DNA of 40,656 nt, from NCBI GenBank assembly GCA_001275005.1, contig JWZX01003128.1, positions 1 to 40,656 on the forward strand, given 5' to 3'. The DNA is from Chrysochromulina tobinii. Taxonomy: Eukaryota. A program made the position numbers and the translations under genes. A model generated the notes under the pieces. That model saw only the letters and a program-made list of their open reading frames with translations. It did not search any database and was not told where the DNA came from. Below, piece by piece: positions 13,610 through 40,391 of this stretch; position 1 is the stretch's first letter, and every line of letters starts with the position of its first letter.

Positions 13610-15223
13610 ATGTCACTCCCACCTGCGGCACCTGTGCCTCCATCGCCGCTGCCCGACAACCTCGCCACACGCAACTTCCCCTCCGCGGGCGCGGATGCCG
13701 AAGAGAGCTTTGACGCTGCCCTCGACGAGTACGTCAAGTTGAAGCCGCACTTGCAGCACGGATACGATCTCCTGACCGACAGGCTCGCCGCACTTTCGAC
13801 TGATGAGAAGAGGGCCGTGTACGACACATTTGCCGAGCTCAAAGCGCACAACTCACAGCATCCGCTCGGGGGTCCACAGCACCTCGAACAGAAGTTCTGC
13901 ACGTTGCTCTTCGGCGCGAGTCCATCGACCCAGGAGGCGGAGGCACTCGCCTTTGCGAAGGGTGCTTGCAAGGAGAGCACGCTCGCCCAGAGCGAAGAGG
14001 CGGCAAAGGAGCGAGTTCTCGACGCAGCCGCAAAGGAGGAGGCGCATGAGGAGGCGCTGTGCACCATCTGTTTCGACGTGCCGCGGAACGTGCGCTTCCG
14101 ACCATGCCATCACTCGACCATGTGCGACGGCTGCGTGCTGAAGTTGATCGCCCGGTCGGAAAACCGCAAGCTCATCTGCCTGACGTGCCGCACGCCGGTC
14201 GAGCGCCTGTGCCGCGAAGGTAGCGCTGACGTGGACGGCGCTGGGTCAGCAGTTACAGATTCAGCCGATGGCGCGCCGTTGAAGCCCGTACGCAAGCCAA
14301 CCTTCGAGCCGCCGCGTGAACTGCCGTTGAAGCCCATTCGCAGGCCAACGTTCGAGCCGCCGCAAGAATTGCCGTTGAAGCCAGTTCGCATGGCAACGTT
14401 TGATCAATCGTCAACCGTAGACGGCCTGCCCGTCGACGCGTTCATCACGTCGCTCAAGAGCATCCCGACCCTGCGCGAAGATGCAGAAAAGGCTGATGAG
14501 GCGTGGAATGTGGAAGTCGACCTCACCGAAGCGGTATGCGAAGACGACCTCTGATGACCTCTGATGACCTCTGATGACCACTGATGACCTCTGATGAGGC
14601 GTGGAACGTGGAAGTCGACCTCACCGAAGCGGTGTGCGAAGACGATCTCGAGGAGGCGAGATTTGGAGTGCCTGTGGAGTGCGACTGATGAGCCGTGATT
14701 GCCTCCCGATATGGCAGGTTGCGCGATGACGATCTTGAGGAGGCGAGAGCGCTGCGTGCCCGTGGCGCGTCCGTCACAAGCCCTAATGAGGAAGGCGAGC
14801 TGCCGTTGGTGCTCGCGTGCATAAATGGGAATCTCGAGATGGCGAGATGGCTCCGCTCCGAAGGCGCAGATGTGAGTGCCACTGACGAACCTCTGAGTGC
14901 CACTGACGAACCTCTGAGATGGCTCCGCACCGAAGACGCAGCTGTGAGCGCCACTGACGCCGAAGGCAACTGCCCCGCGCATGCTGCATGCATGTGCTCA
15001 CCACGGCGCTCGCTCTTCCCCACAGGTGAACGCCACCGATGCTGAAGGAAACTGCCCCGCGCATGCTGCATGCATGGCGGTTTCGTTGCCGTTATGCGAG
15101 TGGCTCAAGGCGGAAGGCGCGCGCTTTGACACAGTCGACTCATTCGGAGTCGGCTCGCTGCTCATGGCCATCGAGGGGCAATACGCTGATGAGGATGATG
15201 ATGATGACGACGAGGACGAGGAC

Positions 15224-15255
<32 letters not shown>

Positions 15256-18200
15256 GGACGAGGACGACGATGACGAGGACGACGACGAGGAGGACGTGGA
15301 CGAGAATGCACAGAATGGTGAAGGTATTCGGAACGAGGTAGCAGAGGACGATGAGGAGTTGCCTAATATGGACGATGATGCGATTGAGGCGAGGCGATTG
15401 AGGCGCGAGGCGCTGGCCGAGGCGACGGAGGCGAGGCGGGCTGCCCATGCGCGCCGTCTCGAGCGGCGCACCGCTCTCGAGGAATCCAAGCTTGCGCTCT
15501 GCCGCTGGCTCCTCGCCGAGGGAGTGCGTGTGAATGGTCGGGAGGGGGGTGTGAATGGTCAGGATGGGGGTGTGAATGATCAGGATGGGCAGTCTGCCAG
15601 ACAGCAGGAGAGCAACGGGAGCGTGGAGGGGCCTCGAGCGGTCAGCCGCTCGGGCCCTGACGACGGTTTGACGCCGTTGCACATGGCATGCGGGATGGGC
15701 TTTGTGCGCATGGCACAGGTGAGATGCGCACATGGCATCTGGGGGCATCTGATGGCATCTGAAGCACGTCGATGGCACGTGATGACATCTGATTGCGTCT
15801 GATTGCGTCTGAGTGCCTGCTCCTCGTGATGGCATCTGATTGCATATGATGGCATCTGATTGCATATGATTGCGTCTGAGTGCCTGCTCCTCGATCCAAC
15901 CCTGCCCCCAGCTGCTGCATGCAAGTGCTCACCACGGCGCCCGCTCTTCCCACAGCTGCTGCATGAGCATGGCGCTCCTCTCGATGCGATCGCGGAGGGC
16001 GATGGAGGCGCGACGCCCTTCCTAACAGCGTGTTCCAACGGCAAGCTCGAGATTCTGATCTGGCTCAAGCAGGCCGGCGCGAATCTCAAGGCGACGGGCG
16101 ACGAAGGGCAGGATGGTCTCTCGATTGCCGCGCGCGAAGGCTACCTCAAGGTGGTCAAGTGGCTGCATGAGGTGAGTGCCAATGAGTGCATACGAGTGCG
16201 GCTGATGGCGCTCTGATTACGCTCCGGTTGCGTCTCCGATTGCATGCAGGGGCTGATTGCGCTCTGATTACGCTCCGGTTGCGTCACCGATTGCATGCAG
16301 GAGGGAGGCCTCGATCTTGAGCTCACTGATTGCCGCTGATTGCATGCTGGAGGGAGGCCTCGATCTCGAGCTCACTGATTGCCGCTGATTGCATGCAGGA
16401 GGGAGGCCTCGATCTCGAGCTCACTGATTGCCGCTGATTGCATGCAGGAGGGAGGCCTCGATCTCGAGCACAAGGATGAGGACGGCCAGACTGCCGTGCA
16501 TGCGGCCGCTAGCGAGGGTGAAGTGAAGGTCCTCGAGTACTTGCATGCTCATGGCGCTTCCCTCACCCGCCCTGACGAGGACGGCGACACCCCCGTCCAC
16601 TTTGCATGCTCCAACGGTCAGCTGGAGGCGGCGAAGTGGCTGGTGGCGCACGGCGCGAGCCTGGTGGCGAGGAATGCGGCGGGGTACGCGCCACTGACTG
16701 CCTCTGATTGCCTCAGATTGCCACTGACTGCAATCAGAGGAATGCGGCGGGGTACGCGCCGGTCCATCTGATGCTCCTTGATGAGCACAGATGGCCTCGC
16801 TGATGACCTCTGATTGCCTCCCTCCTCAGGTACGCGCCGGTCCATCTGGTGCTCCTCGCGGATAGCGTCGAGAATGCCGCCTTGGATGGGATCGGCGACG
16901 ACGACGAGAGCGACGACGAAGACAGTGATGAGGATGATGACGACGATGAGGAGGAGGGGAGTGGCTCGGAGCAGCGCGCGCATCGTGCGCGCATGCGGCG
17001 CCTGACAGAGCTGATGCCTATGCTCGCATGGCTCTGTGAGCAGCCCGGTGTGAACGAGCTCACGTGCCGCCGCCAGCCCCCTCCTCCTCCTGGAGGCTGG
17101 CGGCTGATCCGCCGCCTGGCCGCTCTGGGCGAAGAGGCGCAGGCGGCTCGTTCACACCGGGGAGGCGATTCGTTCACACCGCGGGAGGCGCACGCGGCTC
17201 GTGATGCGGATGCGATGATGGCGGAGGTCACTCGCCTGGTCAGCTCCGCCATTGCCACCGCGGTAGCAGAGGGGGGAGAGGGGGAGGGGCTAGCCGACGC
17301 GATGGCCACGCTCAACATGAACAAGGGTACGCTCGAGGCGAGATTCGATGACGAGACTCTCGATGACGAAACTCTCAATACGCTCGAGGCGCAATTCGAT
17401 TAGCACTTGGAGCGCGCCGTGGCGCAAGGCAGGCTGAGTGAGGCCGAGGCCGATGCGATGACGGATCAGATCGCCTCCAAGCCTAACAACGCCGCGCGGT
17501 GCGAGGCGATGCGCCGAATCATAAAGGGGGAGATTGGGGAGATTGGGTTGAAGGGCGGGCAGGGGGGGGGCGAGGACGAGCCGAACCGGAGCGAGGGCGA
17601 CGCCCGGGATGACGACGGTGCCCGGCACGGCGCGCCCGAGCTTACGCTGCTCCAGTTTATGGAGGAGATTGACCGGGATCGTGCAGAGCATGCCAGCAAA
17701 GCGCCCGAGACGGCGCCCAATTGGTTCGGCCTCAACCGCCGCCGACCGCCGCCGCCGCCGCAGCAGCAGCAGCAGCAGCAGCAGCAGCCGCCGCAGCAGC
17801 CGCCGCCGCAGCCGCCGCAGCAGGCTGTGCTCGCCAAAGGCCCTTCGCCATTTGCGCGCCTTTTGCGTCTGGAGCCATCGGAGCGCGGGAAAGTCGTCGA
17901 CGCGCTCTCGTCACTGCCCACATGGGGTGGTGGCAACATAGAAGGTTTGACACTCGTCGCCGGCCGTTGGGAGCCGAGCTCGTTTAGCGGTGAGACGCTC
18001 GACGTGGCACTCTTCAACTCCGAGGTGCAATCGAAGACCTTGGTCGACTGATGACCTCTGATGATCCTTAATGACCCTTGATTGCGTCCCCCATCAGGTG
18101 CAATCGAAGACCTCGGTCGCGATGCTTCGCGTGCTCGATGATGACCTCCGATGATCCTTAATGACCCTTGATTGCATCCCCCATCAGGTGCAATCGAAGA

Positions 18201-19306
18201 CCTCGGTCGCGATGCTTCGCGTGCTCGATGATGACCTCTGATGATCCTTAATGACCCTTGATTGCGTCCCCCATCAGGTGCAATCGAAGACCTCGGTCGC
18301 GATGCTTCGCGTGCTCGAGGGCCACGCCGACGGCGTGTGCGCCGTGTCGAGCTGCACCGTCGGCGGGCGCGTGCTCGTGCTGAGCGGCTCGTATGACCAC
18401 ACGGTCAAGATGTGGGACGCGGCGGATGGAACGGAGCTCCGCGAGCTCGAGGGGCACACGGACGCTGTGCTTACCGTGGCGAGCTGCACCGTCGACGGGC
18501 GCGTGGTCGTGCTGAGCGGCTCGGTTGACCAGAAGGTGAAGATGTGGGACGCGGCGGACGGTACGGAGCTCCGCGTGTTCGAGGGGCACACGGACATCGT
18601 GTACGCCGTGACGAGCTGCACCGTCGACGGGCGCGTGGTCGTGCTCAGCGGCTCGGCCGACAAAACGGTGCGCATGTGGGACGCGGCGGACGGCAGGCAG
18701 CTTCGGGTGCTCGAGGGGCACACGGACGACGTCTTCGCCGTGACGAGCTGCACCGTAGAAGGGCGCGTGGTCGTGCTGAGCGGCTCGGAGGACCGCACGG
18801 TGCGAATGTGGGATGCGACGGACGGGACGGAGCTCAGAGTGTTCGAGGGGCACACGGACGCCGTATACTCCGTGGCGAGCTGCAACGTCGACGGGCGCGT
18901 GGTCGTGCTGAGCGGCTCGGTTGACAAGACGGTGCGTCTGTGGGACGCGGCGGACGGCAGGCAGCTTCGGGTGCTCGAGGGGCACACGGATGATGTGTGC
19001 GCCGTGACGAGCTGCTCTCTCGACGGGCGCGTGCTCGTGCTCAGTGCCTCGGACGACCGCACAGTACGCATGTGGGATGCGACGGAGGGGAGGTGTGAAG
19101 AGGGAGGTGTGAAGAGGGATGCGACGGATGGGACGGAGCTCAGCGTGCTCTGGGGACACCTACGCGACGTGAACGCCGTGGCGAGCTGCACCGTCGACGG
19201 GCGCACGCTCGTGCTAAGTGGTTCGTGGGACCACACGGTACGCATGTGGGACGTGGGACGCGCCGTCAACGTGGCGGCGGCGGCCGCCGTTGCCGCCGCC
19301 GAGTAG
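13610..19306 (+). CDS. Large multi-exon protein: RING finger, ankyrin repeats, acidic tracts, poly-P/Q and seven WD40 repeats
   Basis: RING CTIC...CHH...CDGC...CLTC; ankyrin motifs GELPLVLAC, GLTPLHMAC, GATPFLTAC, GQTAVHAA, GDTPVHFAC; GH...WD repeats. In-frame introns 14872-15025, 15719-15955, 16172-16447, 16684-16829 and 18025-18277. Less certain GC-donor introns ~14501-14598, 14656-14742 and 17338-17403. Could be two genes split at TAG 17401. Confidence 0.7.
14276..14400 (+). repeat. Coding 48-nt tandem repeat, about 2.6 copies (PLKPxRxPTFE)
   Basis: CCGTTGAAGCC recurs at 14276, 14324 and 14372. Confidence 0.9.
18050..18318 (+). repeat. Three near-identical 90-nt units, each comprising an intron 3' end plus the first ~40 nt of the next exon
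   Basis: CCCCATCAG|GTGCAATCGAAGACCTCGGTCGCGATGCTTCGCGTGCTCGA with acceptors at 18097, 18187 and 18277. Confidence 0.95.
18317..19262 (+). repeat. Seven highly similar WD40-coding repeats with 132-nt period
   Basis: xGH codon groups start at 18317, 18449, 18581, 18713, 18845, 18977 and 19151 (last interval is 132+42). Confidence 0.95.
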
Positions 19307-19800
19307 GGCGCGTGCTCGGCACAGCGCCGAAGGCGGCCGCCGAGTAGGGCGCGTGCTCGGCACAGCGCCTGGACACGGAGCCATGGCCGAGTGCGGCGGC
19401 GCAGACGATGGCCGAGCGTCAAGCCGAGCGTCAGCCGAGCGGGGGCTTGAGCTCGAGAGATTCCGCCCAGTGCTAAAAGACGCATATTCGCAGATGCAGA
19501 GACGAGAGAGCGGGCGTGCAGAGAGACTCATGGTTGACAGTTCGATGGTACCTACGGGCGTGTAGAATCGACATGTGGAAATCGAGCGTGGGGTTTGAGG
19601 CTGTCCGAGCGGAGACAATTGCGATATTGCGTTGCGTCCAATATCGGCGGTCGATTCCGCTCGGCGGTCACGATGCATTACGTTATATGGTATATCATTC
19701 GGACATCGGAGTGTATATCCGTACCGGAAGAGTGAAGTTGTAGACGGACGGTATACAAACGGAACCCGTGTCAAACGGAAATGACCTCACACACTCTCGT

Positions 19801-22397
19801 CTAGCTGCACAAGCGGCCGCAGCGTGGCTTGTACGCGTCGTACGCCTCCAAGGCCGCGGGGCGTACGTACTCGCTCACCACGGCGCTCTGGTCATCCGAA
19901 TCCGAGGCACGAGCGCCGTTTTGAGCAGCGGCTTGAGCGCCGTCACGAGCACCGCCCGCCTCGGGCGCTGTCACGGGCATGCCGACGAGGCAGTAGCGCC
20001 GCTCGTTGGCATGCAGGTGGACTTGGCAGTCCAACGGCCCGAGCAACGAGGTATAGTTGAGGATAGACGGGCCGAGGGCTCCCTTAATCACGCCCGCTCG
20101 GTGCCCCACAACGGTCGAGAGCAGCTGACGTGGCGTTGGTGCGTGCTCGTTGAAGACGGCGCACAGCGATCGCTCCCTGGCAATCAGTGGCAATCAGTGG
20201 CAATCAGTGGCAATCAGTGGCAATCAGTGGCAATCAGGCTCGTTGAAGACGGCGCACAGCGATCGCTCCCTGGCATGGGAGCACGAGCTCATGCCCCTTT
20301 CAAGACTGGCAATCAAGGGCAATCAAGGGAGATCAAGAGCAATCAAGGGCCTTCAAGGGCAATCAAGGGCAATCAAGGGAGATCGCACCTGGCATGGAGC
20401 ACGTGTGCACGTCCCTTCAAGACTGGGGTGATACGCGGCTTGCGACCGCCATCGCCGCTGCTTTTACTGCCGCCGCCGCCGCCGCCGTCGCCGCTGCTGC
20501 TGCTCACTATGTTTTGGAACGCGGCGCCATACGATGGATGGATCTTTCCAACTCGGAGGGAGCCATCGAGGCCCCTCGAGATGCGATCTCCCACCGAGAT
20601 GCGATCTCCCTTCGGCAGCTCGTCCAGCGCGAGCTTCTCGGCGAGATGGGCGCGCAGCTCGGCGAGGTGAAGTGTCTTCTGATCGTCGGCACCCACACCC
20701 TGCGGCCAGCAGAGGCATACAGCGGCCTTCAGCGGTCAGCTGTCGTCAGCAGTCAACTGTGGCAACCAGCGATCCTCCGAGCTCCTCCGAGCTCCTCCGA
20801 GCTCCTCCGAGCTCCTCCGAGCTCCTCCGAGCTCCTCCGAGCTCCTCCGAGCTCCTCCGAGACCCTTCTCCGAGCTCCTCCGAGCTCCTTCTCCGAGCTC
20901 CTTCTCCGAGCTCCTCCGAGCTCCTCCGAGACCCTTCTCCGAGCTCCTCCGAGCTCCTCCGAGCTCCTCCGAGCTCCTCCGAGCTCCTTCTCCGAGCTCC
21001 TCCGAGATCCTTCTCCGAGCTTCTCCGAGCTCCTCCTTCTCCAAGGCAATCACAGGGCACACCTGGCGCATCGAGAGCAGCAGCCAGTCGCGCATGAGCG
21101 CTGCGCTGGGCGCGGACCATCGCACAACCAAGTTGAAGTTGTGAGGGTACATCGTCTCCGTCAACACGTTCTGGGAGGCATGCGCGATATGCAAGCCCCA
21201 CAGCTGGCTACGAAGGGCGGCGTCGAGGAACTTCGACGCAGCACCCGGCGTGCAGCTCACCTGCCATCAGACGCAAGCAGAAGCCATCAGCAGCTGGATT
21301 GCGCTTGATTGCGATGGATTACTCTTGATCGCAGAGGCCATCAGCAGCTCGCCACGTTCGAGTCGAGCGCCCAGGTGAGTGCAATCAAGAGCAATCAAAC
21401 GCACTCCACTGCAATCAAGAGCAATCCATTGCAATCCATTGCAATCAAGCGCACTCCAGTGCAATCAAGAGCAATCCATGCAGCTCACCACGTTCGAGTC
21501 GAGCGCCCACGTGATATGATATGGAGATTGGGCGAGATAGTAGAGGCGCGTGAGCCACTGCCGAGGGACCTTGTCGCTCCGGTTCTGATCGTTCTCGCCC
21601 GCAAAGAGAAGGTCGGCGCGTGGCATGATGTGCGTCGTGAAGATGCGCCGATCGACCGTCTCATTGTTCGTGACGATAGCGATGGGCAAGGTGGGGTTGT
21701 GCTCGCGGAATGAGGCGGCAGCGTACTGCGCCTCGCGCACGAAGTGCTGCAGCGTCTTGCGCCCGCCGTACGCGAAGAGCAGCAGCCCGGCGCCCGACTT
21801 GGCCGACTCGCCCTCGACCGCCCACGACAGCGGTGTGACACGGCGAGGTCGGTGCACCGGGAGCGCCGTGTCGGGGTCTGTCACCTCGGCGCTGCTGCTG
21901 CGGAGGCTCTTGCGCATGGTTGTAATGATGGTACGCTGCGCGTCGATGATTTTTTGCTGCATCTCCACCACGGCCAAGCTGTGCCCCAGTGTCCGACGCT
22001 GTGCGTCCGCGGTCTCCAGCTGCTTCTGACGCGCAGTGATGCTCGAGGACAAGTTGCTCTCCATCGTGGGAAGCTCCTTTTGCAACTCCTCATCATCTGA
22101 GTCGAGATTGCGCAGCCAGCTCCGCAGCGCCGTTCTCGCACGCAAGACCTCCTCTCGCACAGCACCGCGCAATAGCACCATCGACGGCGTGTCTGCGGCC
22201 TCCACGGCGCCATCTCGCACATCGCCTCGTCGGCGGGCCGACGCCACAGCTGCCGCAATCGATTCACCGCTGTACGGGACGGCTGCGATGCGGGGCGGCA
22301 GACCACTCGAGTCCTGCAGCTGCGCGTTCATGAGCACGACGAACATCACGGCGACGCACAGCAGCGCGATGAAGGCTTTTCGCATCGTGTCCGTCAT
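19801..22397 (-). CDS. Type II membrane GT-A-fold glycosyltransferase-like protein; introns 21261-21488, 20700-21062, 20177-20388
   Basis: N-terminal TM and coiled-coil stem. SPYHITWALDSN resembles the SPF..TLFLDxD motif of nucleotide-diphospho-sugar transferases, followed by a DDQ motif. All three GT-AG introns restore frame. Confidence 0.65.
20773..21036 (-). repeat. Intronic 10-nt array (GCTCCTCCGA)n with CTT insertions
   Basis: About 260 nt of decamer-based repeat within intron 20700-21062. Confidence 0.95.
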
Positions 22398-22662: not shown

Positions 22663-24631
22663 GTGTTTCACAGCTCTTCGATCGTCGCGACGAAGACGGC
22701 CGAGGTGTTCTTTCTGACCCCGCACCTCATGTCGTTCGGCGCGTCTTCGAAGGACAAGCAATTGCAGGCAAACTTCGAAGCGGTGGTCGAGTTACTACGC
22801 GAAAGCGAGACCGAGCGTGAGAAGCTCAAGGCGGAGCTCAAGGCGATTCGCAAGGAGCAGGCGGAGGCCGAGAAGCGGTGGGCATCGGCGACCGATGCCT
22901 TCGAGGAGCAGCTGGCGGAGAGCGAGCAACGCGAGAGCGAGCGGCACGCCGCGCTCACAGTGGCGCTAAAGGAGGCGCAGCAGGCCGCGGCAGATTTCCA
23001 GGATCGTGCCGAAGGAGCCGAGGAGCAGCTCGTGGCCGAGGCGGCGCGCGCGTCAAACGCGGAGGATGAGTGCGCTCGCCTGTCGGCGGCCGTCGAGGCG
23101 CTCCAGCAGCAGCAGCAGAGCGCGATGGCGGCGGCCGTGGCGGACAAGGAGCGAGAGCGCGCGGCGCTCGAAACGGCGCTCAAAGAGCTTCGGGCGGAGC
23201 TGGCGACGGTGGCCGCCGCTGCGAAGGATGAGGCGGAGGCAGCAGCCGCACGTGAGCGTACACTGAGCGAGGAGCTTGAGACGGCGCGTCAGCAGGCGAA
23301 TGAGCTCGAGGCGAAGGCGACGCTGGCCAAGGCCTCGGTCGCCGACCGGGTCGCCGCGGCCGAGAAGGCCGAGAACAGCCTGCGCGACGAGATGCGAAAG
23401 ACTGTCGGGGTCGAGCGGCAGCGCGTAGCGGGCATGCTGTACAAGGAGGCGCTCCAGACCCACACTCTCGAGGAGCAGGCACGTTGATTGCCACTGATGA
23501 CCTGCCTTGCATGCAAGTGCTCACCACAGCGCGTTCGGCTCTCGAGGAGCAGGCGCGCCAGCTCGAGGAGCTCAACGCCGAGCTCGCCGACACGCGCGAG
23601 TCGTTGCGCGAGAGCCAGGAAGAGGTGGCCGAGGCCAAATCGCTCGCCGCCGAGCTGCTCACTGCGCTGCATGCAAGTGCTCACCACGACGCCCTCTCCT
23701 CTCCCCACAGGTGGCCGAGGCCAAATCGCTCGCCGCCGAGCTGCTCACTGCGCTGCATGCAAGTGCTCACCACGACGCCCTCTCCTCTCCCCACAGGTGG
23801 CCGAGGCCAAATCGCTCGCCGATCGACGAACGTCCGAGCTTGCACGCGTCCAGGTGATTGCATGCTGGCACGTGAATACATGCTGGCGCGTGAATGCATG
23901 CTGACCGAACGTCCGTGCTTGCACGCGTCCAGGTGCAGCTGACCGCGCTGCAAGACTCGCAGCATAAGAGCTTGCGTTCGGTCGAGCACCTCGACGACCA
24001 GGTGCGCATGCATGCATGCTGATTGCCCACCCCATTTGCATGCTGACTACCCCTCTGCGCGCCTCGACGACCAGCTCGCCGATGAGCAGCAGAGGCGCGA
24101 GCAGGCGGAGGAGCAGCTCAAGACGGTGCAGGTGACGGCGGAGGCTGACGAACCTGAAAGCCTCCCTCTTGGTGCCTCTGACGAACCTCTGAGTGCCTCT
24201 TGACGAACCTCCTGGTGCCTCTTGACGAACCTCGGAGTGCCTCTTGACGAACCTCCTGGTGCCTCTTGACGAACCTCGGAGTGCCGCGGGTGGCTTCTCT
24301 CTGATCTGAGAGCCTCCCTCATTGACGAACCTCTGAGTGCCTCCCTCATCAGGCGACGCTGAGCACGATCGAGAAGAAGCATGCAAGGGAGTTACGCATT
24401 GCCTCAGGCGCGAGCCGCCTCAAGACCACGGCGGCAGCGTGCCAGACGGAGAGGGGCCATCTGAACCCGGAGAAGGCGCTTCAGACCGACTGGTGCGCCG
24501 TGCACATGCCGCTGCCCTCTCCGAGCATGCATGTGCTCACTACGGCGCCCTCGCCTCCCCACAGGTGCGCCGTGCACATGCCGCTGCCCACGCTGCCGCA
24601 CGGTGGGTGCATCCTTCCCAAGATACCCTAG
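22663..24631 (+). CDS. Long coiled-coil protein, 5' exon unresolved; introns 23479-23552 (GC-AG), 23625-23796, 23854-23932, 24002-24074, 24132-24352, 24493-24564
   Basis: E/A/L/Q/R heptad-rich sequence. The splices give one continuous frame ending ...GCILPKIP-TAG. An acceptor GCGCAG at 22662 implies an upstream exon. Confidence 0.7.
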
Positions 24632-28116: not shown

Positions 28117-28210
28117 CGCGGTCATGTTGGTAGCTATAAAAAGTTAAAGGGAGACTAGTATTTAGTAACAGAATAGACACGCTTCAACAGAAACTTCGGG
28201 CGCGTGTCCC

Positions 28211-31002
28211 TCACGTCAACGGCGGCTCTGCGACAATGGTAGCCGCGCCTCGGACGACATCCGCATCAGCCACCTCCTTGCCCGAGCTCGAGCTCACGGT
28301 CATGCCGAGCTCAGCGCGGGTCGAGCAGTCGCCGCCGAGCCGGCCCATTTCGAGCTGGGCCTTGCTGCAATCGTACAGCCGGTGCGCTACCCGCATCTTT
28401 GGGCTCAGATCGGGCGGCTCGAGCAGCACCGTCTGCGGTGCGGGCGGTTCGAAGCGCTTCGCGGCGGAGGGGGGCAGCTCGGCAGGCGGCGCGGGCGGCT
28501 TGAGGCGCCGAGGGCGCCCAGTTCGGGGATCCAAGGTGGCGGCTTGCTCAAGGATGGCCGAGAGCATCAGAGCCCCTGCAGCACGCCGATGAGGGGTGTC
28601 ATCAAACGGTAATCAGAGGCAATCAGAGGGCGCGATCCCCTCACCTGGCACATGAACCACCACGGACGGGAGAGTCGACGTCGCTGCTTCGAGTCGCTCT
28701 ACGGGCCTGATGCCGAGCGCCGTCTCGCCAAGGGCCGCGAGGCTCTCCAGCCCGAAGACGCACGGCGGCTTGAGGTCACGCCCGGTTTCGTCACCCCCCG
28801 CCTGCAGCCGCACCGCGCCCGAGAGCAGCACGAACAAGCCGTCGGGGCGCGCACCCTCGTGATAGAAGGCATGGTACCGGTCGCGCCGCTGTAGCCGGCC
28901 GAGTCGAGAGAGGCGCACCTGAGGAGGGAGGCAATCAGCATGCACTCAGCACGCAATCAGCATGCACTCATCACGCAATCGTCATGCACTCAGCATGCAC
29001 TCAGCATGCACTCAGCATGCAGTCATCATGCCACCCCGATGCATTAGCATGCCGCGTACCAAGGTCTCGTCGGGCAGAAGGTCGAGCGCCTTACAGCCGC
29101 GCAGTGCCCGGGACGCCGCGTCAGCAAGTGGACAAATCCCCATATCGACGCCACGGCTCCCACCTGATGAGGGATGCAATCAACATGCACTCAGCACGCA
29201 ATCAGCATGCAATCCCCATATCGACGCCACGGCTCCCACCAGAGACGAAAGCGTCCGCAATGCGCCGCCCGAGCGAAGAAGGTGCACCGAGCTTGCGCGC
29301 CAGCAGAACTGCCTGTAGAGTCGCCTCCTCCTCTCGCTCACTCTCGCTGAGTACCTGATGAGGGAGGCAATGACGGGTGTCCTCAGCGGCAATCAGCGGC
29401 AATCAGCGGCAATCAGCGGCAATCAGAGGCAATCAGATGCAATCAGATGCAATCAGATGCAATCAGATGCAATCAGCTAAGTACCCGCTCCGTCGGGCGG
29501 CCGTAGAGCCGCCTACTGGCCATCACGCCGTGCAGAGGAGTGTCAGATCTCGCGAGATTTAGAGCTGCCTGGACCTCTCGCCGAGATCGGATCTGCGCCA
29601 GCCGCGCCTCTGCCACCTCGACCAGATTCGTCCGATTCGTCAGATTCGTCAGATTCGTACCCGGCGACACGTGCCCAAGCACCTCCGCCAGCATCGTCTC
29701 GGCCGCATCGAGCTCCGCCCTGCTCAGCCGCCCCTCTGCAAACGCGACAGCCGCCGCCGCCGCACGCCCCGAGGCCGCCCTCAAAGTGGCTTCGTCGGTT
29801 TCGTCAGTTTCGTCCACCGATCGCCCCGAGGCCGCCCTCAAACTGCTGTTCACAGGCACGCTGTTCACAGGCATGCTGTCCACAGTCCCACGCGGCTCCA
29901 CCGCCAGTGAACGGTGGTTCACAGCCAGTGAACGGTGGTTCACAGCCACACGCGGCTCGACTGCGGGCGAGCGCTCCGCCAGTCGCCAATCGGCGAGTGC
30001 TCGCCAATCGACGTCGGTGGCCACTGCATCCACGTCGGCATCTGCCTCTGCGTCCGCCTCCGCGTCTGCGTCTGCGTCCGCGTCTGCGTCTGCGTCTGCA
30101 TCCGCGTCCGTGTCGGTCAACACCTTGCTCGTGGCCGACGATCTCCTCTCGATCTCGATCTCCTCTGATCTCCTCTCTCGCGGAGCCCCACCCGTATTGC
30201 GTGCCACTGCCGCAGTGGCCGAAGCGGGCCGCCGCGACCCTGAGCCCTCCGCTCGCCGCTGGGCGCCCAACGAGGCCGACCACGGCCGCGCCGCCCCCCC
30301 CGAAGCGCGAGCAGGTCGCGCGGCGGCAGACTTGACTTGACTTGACTTGACTTGACTTGACTTGACTTGAACTGCGGCGGCGGACGGGGCTGCCGCTGCT
30401 GGCGCAGCACGATGCGGTGGCGGCGGAGGAACCACCCACGGTGCGGATGCGTTTGCGCCAGGGAACAAGACGGATTGCAAGAGGGTGGTCGGACGAATGG
30501 CCGGTGCTGACGCGACTCGACTAAGCGCCGCCACATCCATTGGCCCAGGTCCGGCATGCACAGCGTAGAGGGGGCTCTGGCCGGCCGCTTTGCCCCGTGA
30601 CACGTGTTGCGAGTGCACAAAGAGCCGACGAGCTGCGATGAGTGCGGCGGCGGACGGATGTGCACCAGGATCTGGCTTCCACAGGACTCTACCTTCAAAG
30701 TGCTCGAAGGTTCTGGTCGCGCGCAGCTTCTCCGTGTTCATGCTTTGTTGCCGATTTGCCGACCGCTCCGGTGGTGGCGTTGTCGCAGACTTGTGCGGCC
30801 TGCTGTCGAATGGAGCGATCGACAACAGAGAGCTGGCCGATTGGGCTGCGCGCGGATTCCCAGGCAATCTTGCGAGTCGTGGCTGCACGTGGGCATCCAT
30901 CCTTGGCGCCGTAAAAAATCTGCCGCCTTCACGAACCGCTTCATGGGGCCAGAGCGTGAGCGTGCGTTGTGTTGAACCAGCATCGAACAGCCCACAAGCC
31001 AA
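28211..31002 (-). CDS. Low-complexity protein with C-terminal cyclic-nucleotide-binding-like domain; introns 29355-29484, 29164-29239, 28919-29059, 28576-28644; start uncertain (ATG 30900)
   Basis: FYHEGARPDGLFVLLSGAVRL...VFGLESL...RLEAATST follows the cNMP beta-roll pattern with a degenerate phosphate-binding cassette. Four GT-AG introns keep frame. Confidence 0.65.
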
Positions 31003-31742: not shown

Positions 31743-32572
31743 CTACTCAGGAATCCCATGAGGTGCGCCCAGGAACAGAAGCTCATGGGCAGCCATCCGC
31801 GTGTCCCAGTCGAACGGCTTCTGGTCGGCGGGGGCGTGGGCGGTGGGCAGCGGCACGTGGGGGGATTGCGCTCGGTACGACGCGTCGCGTGGTGAGCTGG
31901 CGGTCCCGAGCGGCGTGTTGCTGTGGCTGGACGCGTTCGTGGTCTCACTGGTCGCGGTGCGTGAGAGGGGACGCTCGACTGAGCACGACGCGAGCACCAC
32001 CTCGGCGTCCTCGTCCCCATCCAGAGATGAGGTGTCGACCTGCCAAATCAGGGAGATGTCGTCCTCATCGCGGCGCCCGAGACGGCGCTGCTGCGGCGGT
32101 CGCGGCGGCGGCTGCCGATCCCGCGGTTTCCTGGCAGACGCCCTTGCGCATGCAATCAGCGCCGTATCGGGCGCCTCATCCGTCGCGATCATCTCAAGGC
32201 TGCTGGTGGACTCACACTCTTCGCGTTCACACTCGCTCACGTCGTAGTCGGCGAAAGTCTCGATACGCGAGCCCATGTTCAACCCCATGGCTTCCGCGTG
32301 CTTACGCAGCCACTTGCGAACCTGCACCGGCTCGACGCCCGGATGCGCACGCGCAGTCGGCTTGATTCGATTCGACTCGGGCAGACGGAGGGCGAACTGG
32401 ACGACCCGCATTTTGAACTGGGCCGTGTACACCTTGCGGGAGCGCGGGATCTGCACAACAGGGCGGCGTGCGAGCGGTCAGTGTCGTACGACGCCACGTG
32501 CGGGGCGGCGTTCCCATATGCTTGCTGGAGGTGGCTCGGGACGCTCAAGGGGGATACTGTTCCGCAGTCCAT
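31743..32572 (-). CDS. Brinker-type HTH DNA-binding domain protein; main exon 31743-32450, short 5' exon probably from ATG 32572
   Basis: RSRKVYTAQFKMRVV...PTARAHPGVEPVQVRKWLRK resembles BrkDBD. Acceptor TTGTGCAG at 32451; donor unresolved. Confidence 0.6.
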
Positions 32573-33172
32573 GGCGGGTCGGGACGCGCAGGGCTTTGCG
32601 CACCGACTCCGCACGCGCGCTCGAAGCAGTCTGTCGGACGGCCCGTTGGCCCTTGGTCACAGCGCCTGACGCCCGCGAGGTGGTTGCAGGCATGACGCCG
32701 ACGGCCGATTGAACCGGGAGATCCGAGACCCGGCCAATGGTCACGAAGCCGCGGCCCCTCCCTGTTGCCGTCGGCCGACGGCGTTTCCGAGTGTAACTTT
32801 CGACATCCGCCCCTCTAGAAAATCTCCGTGTGAGGTGCGACCTCCGCGATCCCAACCCGAAAGTGAAGACGAAGGGTGCCCACGTTTCCTCGTGACCTCG
32901 AGCGCGCGCCATACGCTCGTGCCAGACGTAGGTGAGCTGGGACTCCAGAGACCCGTGTGCTGTGCCCATCCGAATTATAACCCGCACCCTCGTCAACACG
33001 TCACACCACGGACGAGAAACAAAAGACAACCTACATGTATGCATACAAGAACTTGACTAGACTTTTTGTCTCGACGCGTCTAACTTGACTTGACTGGACT
33101 TGACCTCGTGACGAAGCGCTCGGTGACGCCGAACGAATCAATGCCAAAGATCATCACGACGACCGCCCTACC

Positions 33173-33970
33173 ATGGTACCCTCTCCCATGAAGGTATTGC
33201 TGTTGCTCCTCGCCAGACCCTCGTTGGCGGTCAGTCCTGGGAAGGTGCATCTGATCGATACGTACCCGCGCAATCAGCCGCACAATTACCTCTTCCGAGG
33301 AAACAACCCCGTGGTCGATGGCACCTTCAACTTGACCGCCCTCGTCGATGTGATGCGGCAAAAGGCTGCAGCAGAGTGCGGCGTGACGTTGCCTGCAGCG
33401 TTTCGCTTCGTTGACCTCAGCTTGGAGAACCCAACCGACCCTGGCTACTTCCAGGAGAAGGCCTTCTGGGACGCCAATCCTCGTGCTGGCGAGCTCGACT
33501 CCTACCCGACGCTCGGCTCGCTCCAAGACGTCAAGCACCCCGTAGGCGATGCGGATGAGCTCGTGAAGAGCGGCGACTGGGCGATCCAAGGGCACGCCGA
33601 CTACCTGCCAGAGCGCCTCGCGGCGGTACACGCCAGCCTCACCAACACATCAGGGCCTCCGACCATTTTCTACGCGCACTGCAACGCCGGCTGCGACCGC
33701 ACCGGAGAGTTTTTCGGCGCGTACGCGATGTCGTACCTAGGTTACAATGTGACGACCGCGATGGGCGAGGCCTGCAAGCAGTGCGGCCGCTGCCCCAACT
33801 ATTACGCCACGAACTCGATCGGGTGGTGGTGCCTCACGCTCGAGGCTCAAGGGCGTACCGACGTCGGTCCGTGCATGGACTTTGCGAGCTGTAAGCCTTT
33901 GGGCGACTGCACAGCTCACAACGCGACGCCGCTCGAGGACGACTGCCCGCGACTGGGGCTCGGTGTGTAG
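33173..33970 (+). CDS. Signal-peptide-bearing, Cys-rich protein of the PTP/dual-specificity phosphatase superfamily
   Basis: Signal MKVLLLLLARPSLA, LFRG motif, P-loop HCNAGCDRTG (CX5R), Cys-rich C-terminus. Confidence 0.8.
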   Translation: MVPSPMKVLLLLLARPSLAVSPGKVHLIDTYPRNQPHNYLFRGNNPVVDGTFNLTALVDVMRQKAAAECGVTLPAAFRFVDLSLENPTDPGYFQEKAFWDANPRAGELDSYPTLGSLQDVKHPVGDADELVKSGDWAIQGHADYLPERLAAVHASLTNTSGPPTIFYAHCNAGCDRTGEFFGAYAMSYLGYNVTTAMGEACKQCGRCPNYYATNSIGWWCLTLEAQGRTDVGPCMDFASCKPLGDCTAHNATPLEDDCPRLGLGV

Positions 33971-34364
33971 GTTCTAGTTTGGTGTAGATCGATGTGCGCC
34001 GCAGGGGGCAGGGCGCGCTGCAGTGCCGGCCGGTACACAGGGGTAGATTTAAGGATCCTGAGCGGGCGCGGCGCCCCGCGCTGAGTCTGTGGGCACGCTT
34101 CGTACAGGTGTAGCTCTATCACACGCCTCACACAACTTTCAATATATGTCGTTCCAAATTTTGTGCACAGCTTCCACAGCACATATCCGCAAGAGACTTG
34201 CCACAAGGCTGTCATGAAATTTCGTCGAAATGGTAGGTTGCATGATGGTGCATACGTGTATCAACGGGTGGGGGACGGGGCACCGGCGGCTCGAAAAAAG
34301 GGCCTTCACACAGTCGCCTTCACACAGCGTCTCGAGCCTTCCTGCACGACCACAAAATCGGGCC

Positions 34365-36382
34365 ATGGTCGTGCACGACAAACTCTCGAGCGCGCTGCGC
34401 ACCTTTGCGACTGCCAACCCGTTCTCCACGCTCGAGGAGAGCGGCCGCGTGCTCTCCACGCTGCTCAGCAACCTGGCGCGTGAGGACACGCCCAAGTTTC
34501 GCCGCGTCAACCTGACGAATGCCAAGATCAAGGCCGCCGTGCTCGGCGCGGCGGGCGCCCGCGAGGTGCTCATCGCCGCGGGCTTTTCGGCTGTCGAGGA
34601 CGGTTCGGCGCTCGAGATGACCGGCGACGGCGCCTCGGCGCGCGCCGCCGCCGCCTCCGCTGCGCTCGACGAGGCGCTCGTCGCCGCCGGTGGCCCGTTC
34701 GCGCTTCGGCAGCGCCTGGCGCACGAGGCGCGCTGCTGCTGTGGCGGCGCCCCCGGCGAGGCTGGCACGGTGCTCACCGGCGGCATGGACAACCTGGTCA
34801 AGGTCTGGTCAACCGCGCTGCCGCTGCAGGGCGCCGCAGAGCCCTTGCGAGTCTTCGTCGCGCATGAGAATGCGCGCGGCGCGGCGGGCGTGCTGGCGCT
34901 GTGCTCGCTGCCAGGCGGCGCGGTCGCCTCGGCGGGCCGCGACGGCAAGGTCGTGGTGTGGGATGCCTCCGACGTGGCGGGAGGCGGCGGCGCGGGCGGC
35001 GCAGTGCCGCTCGCAATCCTGATCACTCACGGAGAGCCGCCAGGAAAGGAAGTCTCGAACAAGCAGGTGGTGACTTGCCTGGCGGGAGAAGGCGGAGATG
35101 CGGGCGGCGCGCTGTGCTCCGGCGGCTGGGATCAGACCGTCCGGGTCTGGCATCCGCTCCCCGGAGGAGCAACCCCGACCCCGCGGCGCTGCTCCATGAG
35201 CAAGCCGTGCTCGCCATTTGCGTGCTGCCGGACGGTCGACTGCTCAGCGGCGCGGGCGATGGCACCGTTGGCGTGTGGCGCCGGCCCGTCTCGAGCGCCG
35301 TCTCGAGCGCCGGTTTCGTCAAGGAGGCGGAGTGCAGGGTGCAGACGGTCGTCAGAGGCCTTGCGCCGTACGCCGGCGGCTTCGCGCAGGCACGCTGATG
35401 ACCTCTGATGACCACTGATTACCACTGATGACCTCTGATGACCACTGATGACCTCTGATTACCGCCGTACGCCGACGGCTTCGCGCAGGTCGGCAACGAC
35501 GGCGTCCTCCGTCTCTGGGCGCTCGACACGGCGCTCGTAGCTGGCGCGCCGCGTCTCGCGTGCAGGTGCGCTGATGACCTCTGATGACCACTGATGACCT
35601 ATGATGACCTATGATGACCTCTAATGACCACTGATGACCATTGATGACCACTGATGACCACTGATGACCTCTAATGTGCAGCACGCCCTCGGTCGGCTGC
35701 TACCTCTTCGCCGTCGTCAACTGCACGCCCGACGGCGCCGCCCGATACGGCGCGCCCGAGCAGCTCGCCGTCGGCGGTGATGATGGCTGCGTGCGCATCT
35801 GGCGCGCTGCCGGCCAGGGCGCGGCGATGCCCAATACGGCGCCGGGCGCGATGCCGACGGCCCTCGAGTGCATGCAGACCGTGCGCGTCCCGGGCGAGGT
35901 CTTCGGGCTATGCCTCCTATCCGACGGCGACCTGATCGCGGCGTGCGATGCCGCCGGAGCCGTCGTCTTCACGCGGGCTCCCGGCCGCGCCGCACCACCG
36001 GCCGCCCAAAAATCACTCGCCACCGAGGCGGACGCCTTCGCGACGCCCGCGACGAGCGCCGCCAGCGCCGCTGGCGCCGCTGGCGCCGCTGGTGCCGCTG
36101 GCGGCGGCAACTTGGCGCGTCCGAAACAGATGGCCGCGGATGGCAAGCAATATGACTTCGTCTTTCCGGTCGAGATGGGTGGCGGCAAGGCACAGATCTT
36201 TTGGAACGTCGGCGACGACATACGGACCGTCGCCGCACAGGTACGCTGATTACCACTGATCACCTCTGATACCACACTGATTACCCTCCGGACCGGCCCC
36301 GCACAGTTTGCTCTGCGGAACGGCGTCGGTCTCGATGAGCTCTCCTCCATTGAAGAGTTCATGCGCATGGCGGCTGGCGGCA

Positions 36383-36421
<39 letters not shown>

Positions 36422-36591
36422 TGCCCATGGAGCAGGCTCCGCCGCCGCCCGCGCCCCCGCTCGGCGCGGCTGAGATGCAATCTCGCGTGCAGCAGCTGGT
36501 GACCATGGGGTTCGATGCACAGCGGTCACTGGCGGCCCTGCAGAAGGCGGGTGGGGACGTGGAGGTGGCACTCGGCGTGCTGCTCGGCTGA
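34365..36591 (+). CDS. PUB-WD40-PFU-UBA protein (PLAA/Doa1-related); introns 35390-35488 (GC-AG), 35566-35681, 36241-36306; frameshift near 35180
   Basis: PUB LLSNL...PKFRRVNLTN...VLIAAGF; WD motifs TGGMDNLVKVW, SGGWDQTVRVW; PFU-like DGKQYDFVFPVE...WN...AAQF; UBA QLVTMGF...AL...GGDVEVAL. Confidence 0.75.
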
Positions 36592-36700
36592 GCGCGTGAC
36601 CGCGCAACGTGGAAGGCGATGGTTCAGTGTTGGGAGTCAATTGCGGATTCGTAGTGCACAGTACGGAGAGTTCGCTCATGACGACGCGGGAAATAAATAA

Positions 36701-37201
36701 ATGAGATTCAGCTTGTGGGCGCTGCTCGCGCTCGACGTCCACGCGTTCGGTTCGAGCTGCCAACTGTCGACAGCGAGCTCCCGAAGCAGGCGAGCCGCGA
36801 CGAGGCTCTCGGATTCAGCAGCTCCACCTGGGTCGTATGTAGGCTTCGTGCAATCTAAGCTCAGGGCGGGTATTCCAGGGGTCGTGCATTGCCACGTGCG
36901 CGATTGCAGCGACGGCCACACGGTCACGGGCTTTTCGGATGGCAGCAAGCGGGCGCTGGCCAAGGATGGCATACAGCTCGAGGTGCTCATCGTCGCGAGC
37001 GCCTTTGAAGGTGTGAGCACGATGAAGAGGCACCGGACCGTCCACGCGTGCCTCGACGAGGAGTTCAAGCGCAACGCCATACACTCAATCGAGCTCAAGA
37101 CGCTTACCGCCGAGCAGTGGGAGGACATGGGGGGACCTCCCACCTACGCGGCGATGGCGGCCAGCCAAAGGCAAGCGGCCTTCAAGATTGAGACATCTTG
37201 A
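36701..37201 (+). CDS. bolA: BolA family protein with signal peptide and probable plastid transit peptide
   Basis: IVASAFEGVSTMKRHRTVH...IHSIELKTLTAEQW is the BolA signature. N-terminus MRFSLWALLALDVHA-F followed by an S/R-rich stretch. Confidence 0.85.
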   Translation: MRFSLWALLALDVHAFGSSCQLSTASSRSRRAATRLSDSAAPPGSYVGFVQSKLRAGIPGVVHCHVRDCSDGHTVTGFSDGSKRALAKDGIQLEVLIVASAFEGVSTMKRHRTVHACLDEEFKRNAIHSIELKTLTAEQWEDMGGPPTYAAMAASQRQAAFKIETS

Positions 37202-38000
37202 CGTCTAGATGCCCCTGTGGGCGCCACAGAGCCCTGCTGTATCTCTTTGGCCGCGTGTGCTGGGGCGCAGGGACCGCGCGCGAGTCGCGCGCATTCATGG
37301 TAGCGGAGGTTTATAGTTTTGTCGTGTTGCGCGCGGCTAGGTTACGTTACTCGACTCAGGGTGCCGGGAGACGGCCGGGCAAACTTCCGGGCACGGGTTC
37401 GACGATTAAAAAGTTGAGAACCCCGCTCCCCGGGGGACGGTAGCGCCCGTGAACGGTCGTGAGCGAGCCGGACCGGACGGTACGCCGGCTCTACGCAACG
37501 CGAACACGGCGTGTCGCTATCGGCTTCTGTATTGAGTATTCGTTTTGATTATTTCTTGAATTGACTCCTGTGTCACGCGGGGGCGTCTACGGGTCTTACG
37601 GTCCGCGGGCGCTCGGGACGGGATTTACGGGAAGCGCTCCCGGCAATTGGGTATTGGCTCCCGCCCTCCCGGGCGCCCGGACCACAGGGCGCCCCCCTCG
37701 ACCCGGGCAGGAGGTAGAATTGCAATACCATCATGCCCCATGGTAGCTGATCCTGATCGGTTTGCCCCAATCTATGCCACGCGTCACAAATGAATGCATG
37801 AGATCCCCGATGCCGGCTGCTGCATGCTGCGCCAGAGCTTTTCCCGTGGTGCGCAATCCAGTTCCGCCAAGAGTTCGCCCATCACAGCGCCCGCCCATCA
37901 CAGCTCCCACCCATCACAGCGCCAGCCCACCACAGCGCCTGCCCACCACGGCGCTCGTCCATCACACGCCCTAGTGGCGTTTAGGTAGGGGGCTCCCTAA

Positions 38001-40391
38001 TTAGGTAGGGGGCTTCCACTCAGTGTCGGCGAAGGGCGCCGTCCCGGCAGGGATGCGCATCTGCGCGTCAAAGAGTCGCAGAGCGGCCCTCCACTTGCCC
38101 TCGCGGTTGGTCGTACCCTGCGGCGTCGCGAGATCGACCGTCTCCACCTTAATCATCCGAGATCATACGAGATCATACGAGATCATACGAGATCATCCGA
38201 GGCAATCAGGGCACACCTTCGGCGTCGCGAGATCGACCGTCTCCACCTTGATCATCGTCTCGTTGTTGTCGGCGGCCAGCTTGTTGAGAGTGATGTACCT
38301 GAAGAAGGAGGCAGCGTCAGATGCGATCAGCCGCCGTCATCAGCAGTCGTCACTAGCAGAATGTGTGGTCATCAGATGTACCCGTCGGTGCCATAGCCCT
38401 CCATCGGAGCGAGGTGTAGCGTGCCGCCAAAGTACTTTGCGTATAGTCGCGCGAGCGGCAGCCCCAGCCCCACCTGAGATGATGAGATGCGATGAGATGC
38501 AATTAGATACGATGAGATGCGATGAGATGCGATGAGATGCGGCAGCCCCAGCCCTACCTTCCAATTCGCACCGCCGACCTTAATCATCCGAGAACATCCG
38601 AGATAATCCGAGATCATCCGAGGCAATCAGGGCACACCTTCCAATTCGCATCGCCCACCGAGACCGGAAGGACTTTTCGGTCAGTCGCCACCTTCCAATT
38701 ACGGTCCGTGTGCATGCTGCGATAGGACCAGATGTCCGCAAGACCCGAGCGCGGCATTCCGCCAGCCTGGTCCGCCACTTTGATGGTCACATTCGCGTCG
38801 CTCACCTGAGGATGGAGGCCAACCGATCCCAAATTAGGTCATCATCGGGCGAGATCAGGCGAGATCCACCGCTCACCGCCACGATGACGCGGATGGGGAC
38901 CGATTCCAAATCGACAGTGCGCCCAGAGCCAGATTGTGACGAAACGTGACGAAGCGTCGCTTTGGAGGCGTTCGAGAGCAGCTCGCCCACTACGAAGCGC
39001 AGGTGGCTCGGCACGTACCTGATGGCGGACGCAATCAGATGCCATCAGAGCTCATCAGAGCTCATCAGAGCTCATCGGAGCTCATCGGAGCTCATCAGAG
39101 CTCATCAAGCGCAGGCGAATCGGTGCTTACGTGAAGCTATGCGAAGGGTCGCCGTGGACGTGAATGGGAGGCAATCAAGGAGTTTCGTCAAGATGCGTAC
39201 GTGAAGCTATGCGAAGGGTCGCCGTGAACATGAATGGGAGGCGCGGCCCCAAACTGGGCACGAGTCCATTCACTCATCTCGTCGGCGAGCTCCTTGCACA
39301 CGGCCACAGGCGAGCACGCGAGCTCGATGATACCAGCGTACCTGATGAAGGAGGCCATCAGGGAGGCCATCAGAGGGCATCAAAGGCCATCCATGGCCAT
39401 CAGAGCTCATCAGAGCTCATCAGAGCTCATCAGAGGCCATCAGAGCTCATCAGAGGCCATCGGCGCACCCCTCCCTTGGCTGCCGCGCGCCCAAATTAGG
39501 GAGGCAATCAGAGCTCATCAGAGGCCATCGGCGCACCCCTCCCGCGGCTGCCGCGCGCCCAAAAAATGCTCCGTCAGAAACCGGAGACCCAATCTGGCCG
39601 AGAAGATCGCGTCCAGATGCCGGTCGATCGCGAGCTTCAGGGCCGCGTCGAGCCCCGACGAGCCGTTGGCCTCTGATGAGCTTTGATTAAGTGACTCCTC
39701 CACACGGAGGTGTGAAGGAGACTCCTCGGTGTGAAGCGACGTGAGCGCCTCGGCGAACGTGCGTCGCGTCTCGCCCTCCTACTCCGCAACACCGCAGGAG
39801 CTCCACCAATCAGTGTGGCCATCGGACGCAATCAGGCGCAATCAAGGGGAAGACCTCCACCTGCTCCTCAAAGCGCAGGCGCAAGCGGCCCGCGAACTCC
39901 AGCTCGTCGCCCGCGTTGGTCATGCGCGGCTGCTCAAGGAGAAAGAGGAGGCGCTGCCAGTAGGCCGTCGTGAGCAGCTGCACCGCGGGCTGGCGTGCCA
40001 GCTCCGAGGGCACCGCCAGGAGCAGAGAGAGGATGTGCGCTCTGCGTGCCAGGAGCTCACGCCGCACAAACTTTGCGTTGAGCAGCGCTTGCTCCGCCGA
40101 GCGAGCCTGCATCTCGGCCGCACGTTGCAGTGTGCGGATGGACACCGGTGTGGGCGGCAGGAGCTCTGTGAGCCTCGCGATGGTCTCGCGACACGGCGGT
40201 GCATGGCGCATCGCAAGCAGCTGGCTCGTGAGCTCGGGCAGCGCCAAAGTGCTGCTGCTGCCGCCGCTGCTGCTGCCGAGCTGCCGCACGGCGGCACGGG
40301 CCGAGCGATGGCAGTCGAGACTGCTGCTGCCGAGCTGTGCTACACGGGCCGTACGATGGGGAGCCAAGAGCAAGGTGCGCACGGTAGCCAT
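38001..40391 (-). CDS. PDK: Mitochondrial pyruvate dehydrogenase kinase / BCKD-kinase family protein; introns 39779-39860, 39342-39536, 39019-39200, 38806-38876, 38474-38637 (possibly split by microexon 38558-38578), 38299-38381, 38118-38216
   Basis: Spliced product contains [26 protein letters not shown]...[15 protein letters not shown] and [16 protein letters not shown]...MEGYGTD. R/S/A-rich presequence. Confidence 0.85.

Follow-up and report, generated by a model that had tools for sequence, protein, structure and literature searches.

Introns that repeat the sequence of their flanking exons in a genomic window of Chrysochromulina tobinii

The window analysed here is the whole of contig JWZX01003128.1 from the freshwater haptophyte Chrysochromulina tobinii, 40,656 nucleotides long, with a GC content of 58-68%. 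Its genes include a RING/ankyrin gene, a coiled-coil gene, a cNMP-domain gene, a PLAA-like gene and a pyruvate dehydrogenase kinase-like (PDK) gene. Many introns in these genes either begin with a copy of the start of the next exon (5' echo) or end with a copy of the end of the previous exon (3' echo), with a repetitive filler lying between copy and original; other copies are called internal echoes. The introns, 33 in all, were modelled manually, 28 in six genes and 5 in other genes. The stretch 14493-14717 is excluded from every count.

Echoes and filler in the introns of six genes

The echoes are real. Junction-anchored echoes were scored against a null of 994 swapped intron/exon pairs. A score of at least 7 is reached by 14 of the 33 introns (14/28 in the six genes) and by 0.9% of the swapped pairs. 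At a score of at least 10 the figures are 11/33 and 0/994. A threshold of 6 admits 17 of the 28 introns in the six genes, and 20/28 show an echo when internal copies are included. The 5 introns in other genes carry none, anchored or internal. Among the seven PDK introns whose junctions are fixed by homologues, 3/7 have an anchored echo and 6/7 have internal echoes. The initial annotation of this window held that most introns echo, which is so at a score of 6 or with internal echoes counted, but at a score of 7 the share is exactly half. All nine introns that it named are bounded by GT/GC...AG and carry an echo where one was claimed; its lengths of 26, 30, 30, 27, ~40, 16, 13, 7 and 7 nt become 25, 29, 27, 26, 40, 14, 13, 7 and 7 nt on measurement (introns starting at 24493, 29164, 23854, 35390, 38118, 23479, 24002, 38806 and 38299). 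Once the introns are taken out, five of the six genes each read as a single open frame, in line with the claim that the frame is restored; in the sixth (19790-22390) one boundary is 2 nt off in the frame test, and this gene is not counted among the open frames. The seven PDK junction regions agree with homologues, and the spliced coiled-coil model aligns to P0068 over all six junctions.

The same echoes are present in two other assemblies, L023 (99.992% identical over window positions 28337-40656) and L024 (100% identical over 35470-40623), and this agreement makes an assembly artefact unlikely. The DNA runs that contain window sequence come from mixed cultures and fresh water, and ten of them contain 0.92 of the 31-mers sampled from 22500-32400. 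Near position 35178 the window lacks a base that L023 has, and in L023 the first exon of the PLAA-like gene shares the frame of the other exons; a one-base assembly error in the window is likely here. Single gaps are also present in the contig alignments.

The anchored echoes are one-sided. In 17/17 cases with a score of at least 6, the opposite side scores 3 or less. Nine of them reproduce the beginning of the next exon and end in a shared 3' module; in the remaining eight, the filler comes first and the copy of the previous exon stands at the end. Anchored echoes range from 6 to 40 nt, varying even within one end module, and internal ones reach 79 nt. Echoes of at least 13 nt carry 0-8 mismatches, mostly 0-1. 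AG precedes the donor in 2/9 targets of the next-exon type, GY follows the acceptor in 3/8 of the previous-exon type, and the full AG|GY is found in 5/17. Because only these five targets hold AG|GY, the filler supplies the other splice site; the one-sidedness and the shared end modules likewise support the annotation's idea of a process that supplies its own splice signals.

The filler is built up from 10-11-nt units together with short modules in which CTGAY is frequent (101 sense, 9 antisense); this motif resembles the branch-point consensus. In the window the filler motif occurs 61 times within introns and 5 times outside. Shared 3' and 5' end modules are visible among the introns and recur in unrelated genes. 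In comparisons between genes, which lie on both strands, the filler matches better in sense than in antisense for 28/28 introns. The filler is shared among introns, as had been claimed. For 15 of the 28 introns the closest match to the filler is found in the same gene, against 4.3 expected (p=0.0001, exon-only flanks); the figure is 10/28 (p=0.014) in a test that over-masks neighbouring introns. A filler seed can be traced at 25 of 33 joints; there the mean overlap between echo and filler is 2.3 nt (null 1.2-1.4, p<=0.001), trivial AG overlaps being dropped (42 joints with them, 33 without). Read et al. (2013) are said to have described oriented intronic repeats of 10-11 bp in Emiliania huxleyi, similar to the window filler in period and orientation bias, reportedly making no link to exon echoes or intron birth.

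Internal echoes with a score of at least 20 occur in 10/28 introns. They record a later event at a junction that was already there, and not every echo marks the birth of an intron. At 16172-16447, 18025-18277 and 23625-23796, serial echoes produce runs of two to four near-identical 3' splice sites. Since the frame needs the last of them, either the distal acceptor is chosen or the other products decay. Plain direct duplications without filler are common outside introns in the window; two of them, at 24784-24843 (60 nt) and 31664-31711 (48 nt), are missing from RNA run X12, which represents a slightly diverged population. At 24598-24696 a 37-nt duplication spans the stop codon of the coiled-coil gene and its filler is oppositely oriented, which fits an overlapping minus-strand transcript that an RNA contig covers down to 24663.

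Table 1. Echo-bearing introns and related stretches, in window coordinates.
Position	Strand	Gene	Description
14493..14717	+	RING/ankyrin	59-nt duplication, 10-nt repeat filler, then second 26-nt echo (pairs 14493/14591, 14636/14723); intron boundaries ambiguous
14872..15025	+		Predicted intron; internal 79-nt echo, 8 mismatches; shared 3' end module
15719..15955	+		Predicted intron; re-duplicated 3' splice end with 13-nt echo
16172..16447	+		Predicted intron; next exon start echoed serially three times, 23-24 nt
16684..16829	+		Predicted intron; 5' echo 9 nt and internal echo 42 nt
18025..18277	+		Predicted intron preceding WD40 repeats; 5' echo 22 nt and two serial 43-nt echoes
20177..20388	-		Predicted intron; internal echo 41 nt, 3' end re-duplicated
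21261..21488	-		Predicted intron; 5' echo 10 nt and internal echo 35 nt
23479..23552	+	Coiled-coil	Intron 1, GC donor; 3' echo 14 nt; uninterrupted in 12/12 near-identical relatives
23625..23796	+	Coiled-coil	Intron 2; two serial 5' echoes, 25-27 nt; uninterrupted in 12/12 relatives
23854..23932	+	Coiled-coil	Intron 3; 3' echo 27 nt; entered by P0102 (1/12), absent from 11
24002..24074	+	Coiled-coil	Intron 4; 3' echo 13 nt; common to 11 relatives reaching the site
24493..24564	+	Coiled-coil	Intron 6; 5' echo 25 nt and shared 3' end module; junction fits P0068
29164..29239	-	cNMP-domain	Predicted intron; perfect 29-nt 5' echo; filler closest to same-gene intron 28919-29059
29355..29484	-		Predicted intron; 5' echo 9 nt; filler is the 10-nt repeat
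35390..35488	+	PLAA-like	Intron, GC donor; 3' echo 26 nt; filler closest to intron 35566-35681
36241..36306	+	PLAA-like	Intron; 3' echo 18 nt
38118..38216	-	PDK	Intron; 40-nt echo; filler module common with 38474-38691
38299..38381	-	PDK	Intron; 5' echo 7 nt; junction fixed by homologues
38474..38691	-	PDK	Intron, nested echoes; donor choice uncertain, homologues 2 residues longer here
38806..38876	-	PDK	Intron; 5' echo 7 nt; junction fixed by homologues
39019..39200	-	PDK	Intron; junction-spanning internal echo 66 nt, 8 mismatches
39342..39536	-	PDK	Intron; donor-spanning duplication 33 nt; filler closest to 39019-39200
39779..39860	-	PDK	Intron; sub-threshold decayed 3' echo, 9/11 matches

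Two places in these genes allow more than one model. In PDK, the 54 nt at 38637-38691 are in frame between two copies of one 9-nt exon end and may be coding or intronic, and homologues tolerate inserts here. At 17401-17403 an in-frame TAG stands between an ankyrin part (623 open codons) and a WD40 part (549) that otherwise share one frame, which may reflect two separate genes, a nonsense allele or an intron missing from the model. The gene at 26848 has no introns, and its product groups at 90% identity with a protein of Chrysochromulina parva; together with the origin of the DNA runs, this marks the source as a freshwater haptophyte of Chrysochromulina type.

Intron presence in relatives and positions in the PDK family

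Twelve clustered gene calls from public assemblies match the coiled-coil gene at up to 91 of 94 residues (97% protein identity). Two of them are carried by 62 and 22 contigs, whose lengths reach 7.8 and 23 kb and are too great for mRNA. The sites of introns 1 and 2 are read through by 12/12 relatives and the site of intron 3 by 11/12. Those 11 then run into intron 4, where their read-through peptide is the window's own (VRVHA vs VRMHA), and the remaining relative, P0102, enters intron 3 (VIACWHVNAC vs VIACWHVNTC). Three echo introns thus appear to be absent from near-identical relatives, as judged from gene-caller translations and not from DNA. Seven of the 12 begin within an interruption that the window does not have, the end of which copies the residues of the preceding exon. 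The outgroup P0076 (contigs up to 12.9 kb) aligns without a break at all six intron sites, and both P0076 and a second outgroup, P0067, are without introns 1 and 2. Viral matches for the relative P0097 are weak only. In the distant coiled-coil relative P0084 the translation runs into a PNPNPN tract beside the site of intron 1, the kind of peptide expected from telomere-type filler.

For PDK, 6 of 38 loci were modelled. L011, L012 and L036 were excluded because they are nearly identical copies, and L023 and L024 because they represent the gene of the window itself; the remaining loci are distant or show no intron in the matching part. The comparison covers 26 positions from nine sources, namely 7 in the window, 16 from the six partial-gene loci, where boundaries were set automatically and 3/16 corrected manually, and 3 from read-throughs. 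None of the 26 is shared, and P0001, the closest PDK relative, reads through five window intron sites. Positions conserved in distant orthologues had been named in the annotation as a sign of old introns, and these 26 PDK positions include none.

Among the other loci, which were recognised by their PDK likeness, L010 and L026 are 98.3% identical in protein and differ by two whole introns, the empty sites being visible in DNA and each differing intron having a short duplication of the empty site. An anchored echo score of at least 6 is reached by 7/16 introns in the other loci against 0.4% of 240 swapped pairs. Filler rich in TTAGGG/CCCTAA, the haptophyte telomere repeat in the accessible text of two sources (PMC3622300, PMC11347835), occurs in L010 (18 units), L013 (13) and L037 (up to 24), and donor-like repeats serve as filler in L013 and L026. 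To judge by these sequences, the echo design is common to other haptophyte loci and the filler alphabet is different. The telomere-type filler at L010:1548-1681, L013:289-647, L037:241-1487 and L026:354-444 is in several cases G-rich and then C-rich, in a repeat that resembles donor and branch signals.

Known routes of intron gain

The following comparisons extend to the accessible parts of the cited sources. In Daphnia pulex, neointrons attributed to staggered double-strand-break repair show 33 repeats of 4-12 bp, with AT-rich inserts mostly of unknown source (PMC4202315). The window introns resemble them in having an exon end repeated directly at the far end of the intron (14/33 vs 0.9% in swapped pairs), in repeat events within young introns, in presence or absence among close relatives and in parallel gains. 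Absence from relatives and outgroups is seen as protein read-throughs for the window gene and as empty DNA sites for L010/L026, with contrary hints from P0067, P0077 and P0082. They differ in the length of the echoes, which measure 6-40 nt at junctions and reach 79 nt within introns, and in a filler that is shared among introns, sense-oriented, locally enriched and furnished with one splice end. The echo introns are probably a variant of break-repair intron gain, close in kind to those of Daphnia, and not a new category.

Introners, including a Chrysochromulina sp. MAG (metagenome-assembled genome) family and the Polarella classes, have class-specific duplications of 3-8 nt and copies similar from end to end (bioRxiv 10.1101/2022.06.06.494994; bioRxiv 10.1101/2020.10.14.339549). 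Like them, the window inserts carry one splice site while the target duplication gives the other (17/17 one-sided), and related sequence recurs in unrelated genes. Unlike them, the echoes vary in length even within one end module, form no end-to-end family, lack inverted ends and include both mirror types, and the annotation was right that they fit fixed-length introner duplications poorly. The supplementary family lists of the introner papers could include the window fillers. Tandem genomic duplication of AGGT proto-splice sites requires AG|GT in the target and involves no filler (PMC3443670). Splice dinucleotides derived from duplicated exon sequence and an unchanged protein are common to that model and the window; here, however, AG|GY is found in just 5/17 targets and a filler in every case. 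The model fails for the window, and the annotation too had seen no clean fit. Templated insertions in alternative end joining or patch-mediated repair (PMC7407515) share with the window the partial tandem duplication, inserts copied from nearby DNA and short homology at joints, but the accessible text ties them to no intron creation. A literature search, with most subscription journals and supplements outside its reach, found no description of exon-echo introns in haptophytes, nor do the C. tobin and Phaeocystis genome papers describe them in the parts accessible.

A proposed template-switch route and its rivals

Recent intron gain is likely, because relatives read through three echo-intron sites and no PDK position is shared. 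On balance, and with moderate confidence, the echo introns are regarded as young spliceosomal introns formed by template-switch repair that copies half of a nearby intron and duplicates exon sequence; we infer the enzyme, the template and precise splicing. A repair polymerase would leave the exon in the midst of synthesis, in an event with two switches. The switched strand, with DNA as its template, would copy the 5' or 3' half of an existing same-strand intron, often in the same gene or nearby, and would rejoin the exon slightly upstream, thereby duplicating 6-40 or more exon bases around the copied filler. The copied half would carry a working 5' end, or a branch point and 3' end, and the duplicated exon would provide the remaining GY or AG, allowing exact removal of the insert by splicing. 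Under selection, coding exons would retain only precisely removable events, others being purged, while events at existing junctions would be tolerated and would accumulate, lengthening introns. Each new intron could become the template for the next.

Several points weigh against this reading. The intron models were drawn from reading frame and splice motifs in full knowledge of the echoes, and independent fixing of junctions by homologues covers the 7 PDK introns only. RNA contigs show introns 25934-26072 and 32451-32603 spliced; both belong to the five in other genes, and neither has an echo. Among the 15 RNA joints listed, with 398 further joints outside the listing, none is an echo-intron junction. 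Near-identical relatives seem to be without three echo introns, but the intron-3 site (23854) appears to be interrupted in P0067 (45% identical). The alignments of P0077 and P0082 diverge just past the intron-1 site, and some sites may be old or hit in parallel. In PDK, a partial L026 intron outside the 26 positions lies at the same IK|VAD site as an L037 intron. Direct repeats also permit precise loss, and absence in relatives alone leaves the direction unfixed. No overlap is seen at 7/25 joints, and the overlap test gives p=0.013 at its harshest setting. The same-gene likeness of filler, which is seen within one window, could stem from later gene conversion. The annotation's template-switch interpretation therefore stands in part, upheld by recent gain, the poor introner fit and the filler-supplied splice end, and qualified by the re-hitting of existing junctions (10/28), the kinship with Daphnia neointrons and the missing echo junctions in RNA.

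The template may instead be RNA, an unlikely alternative that nevertheless has specific points in its favour. Here an excised, debranched intron RNA would be reverse-copied into a staggered nick; priming at the 3' end with an early stop would yield the 5'-echo type, and internal priming with run-off at the 5' end would yield the 3'-echo type. In 12/17 cases the filler ends exactly at GT/GC or AG in a target without AG|GY, and introns of the same gene are over-represented as donors. Counting for it as well are duplications that vary in length and inner joints that are ragged and overlap, both hallmarks of target-primed reverse transcription. However, the window yielded neither a reverse transcriptase nor a poly(A) tail nor scattered copies of the filler between genes, the exon-end consensus offers hidden homology of 2-4 nt for a DNA switch, and DNA switching explains the internal echoes, which cross junctions and have free ends.

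A short non-autonomous mobile element, introner-like or SINE-like (short interspersed nuclear element), with variable target duplication and filler modules as its decayed copies, is improbable. It would account for end modules that recur in unrelated genes and for DNA contigs that stack several hundred-fold on filler bins, and introners with 4-bp duplications are on record in the accessible text on a marine Chrysochromulina MAG (bioRxiv 10.1101/2022.06.06.494994). Against it, 0/378 intron pairs in the window reach 80% whole-length identity (best 72%), and the longest inverted matches between filler ends are 2-6 nt across the 28 introns, with no terminal inverted repeats. The two mirror-image types are present in 9 and 8 of 17 cases, the same-gene bias is unexpected for a dispersed element, and other haptophyte loci have the same design with unrelated fillers. 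Comparison of the filler motifs with viral contigs gave 0 matches; separately, two bacterial matches and one unrelated viral match were found.

There is little to recommend the reading of the introns as old, with echoes arising only from duplications across existing junctions and decay, and with relatives having lost introns by inter-repeat deletion or cDNA conversion. The internal echoes of 10/28 introns were indeed made at existing junctions, the three missing introns lie side by side, a pattern expected of cDNA-mediated loss, and the apparent interruption of P0067 at the intron-3 site agrees with it. This is countered by the 0/26 shared PDK positions, by the five sites that P0001 reads through, by outgroups without introns 1 and 2, and by echoes that mostly carry 0-1 mismatches.

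De novo synthesis of filler on broken ends by telomerase or a telomerase-like enzyme before rejoining is very unlikely. The TTAGGG/CCCTAA-rich filler of L010, L013 and L037 would suit it, as would introns that are G-rich then C-rich, as from two healed ends, and a telomere-repeat insert with end-addition polarity is partly seen in these three loci, but not in the window. The window filler is built of 10-11-nt units and not of TTAGGG, and half-intron copying equally explains the telomere-type polarity. End-addition predicts opposite strands for the two echo types, but filler orientation does not flip between them, and a pure telomerase reading of the window is rejected. An assembly artefact can be set aside almost entirely: all assemblies are short-read and possibly from one culture, but two others and the ten DNA runs agree with the window, the echoes contain mismatches and relatives enter the same introns 3 and 4.

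Beyond template-switch repair as such, a wider picture is offered tentatively. A transposon-free chain reaction of introns may operate in haptophytes, in which a half-intron, possibly as excised RNA, is copied into a nearby exon with variable duplication and the products seed the next round. The filler alphabet would be lineage-specific (10-11-nt units vs telomere repeats), and the intron positions of whole gene families might all be replaced.

Many recent intron gains fit none of seven proposed routes (PMC3443670), and almost no insert could be traced to its source in the Daphnia study (PMC4202315), as far as the accessible text of both goes. The origin of the sequence of new introns is an open question, and in the window introns the two components can still be told apart, one copied from the local exon and the other similar to part of another intron. 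A further warning is that many introns of these algae will go unnoticed in gene models. Echo introns appear to differ among near-identical lake relatives of a culturable alga, and the source, direction and rate of intron gain are therefore testable.

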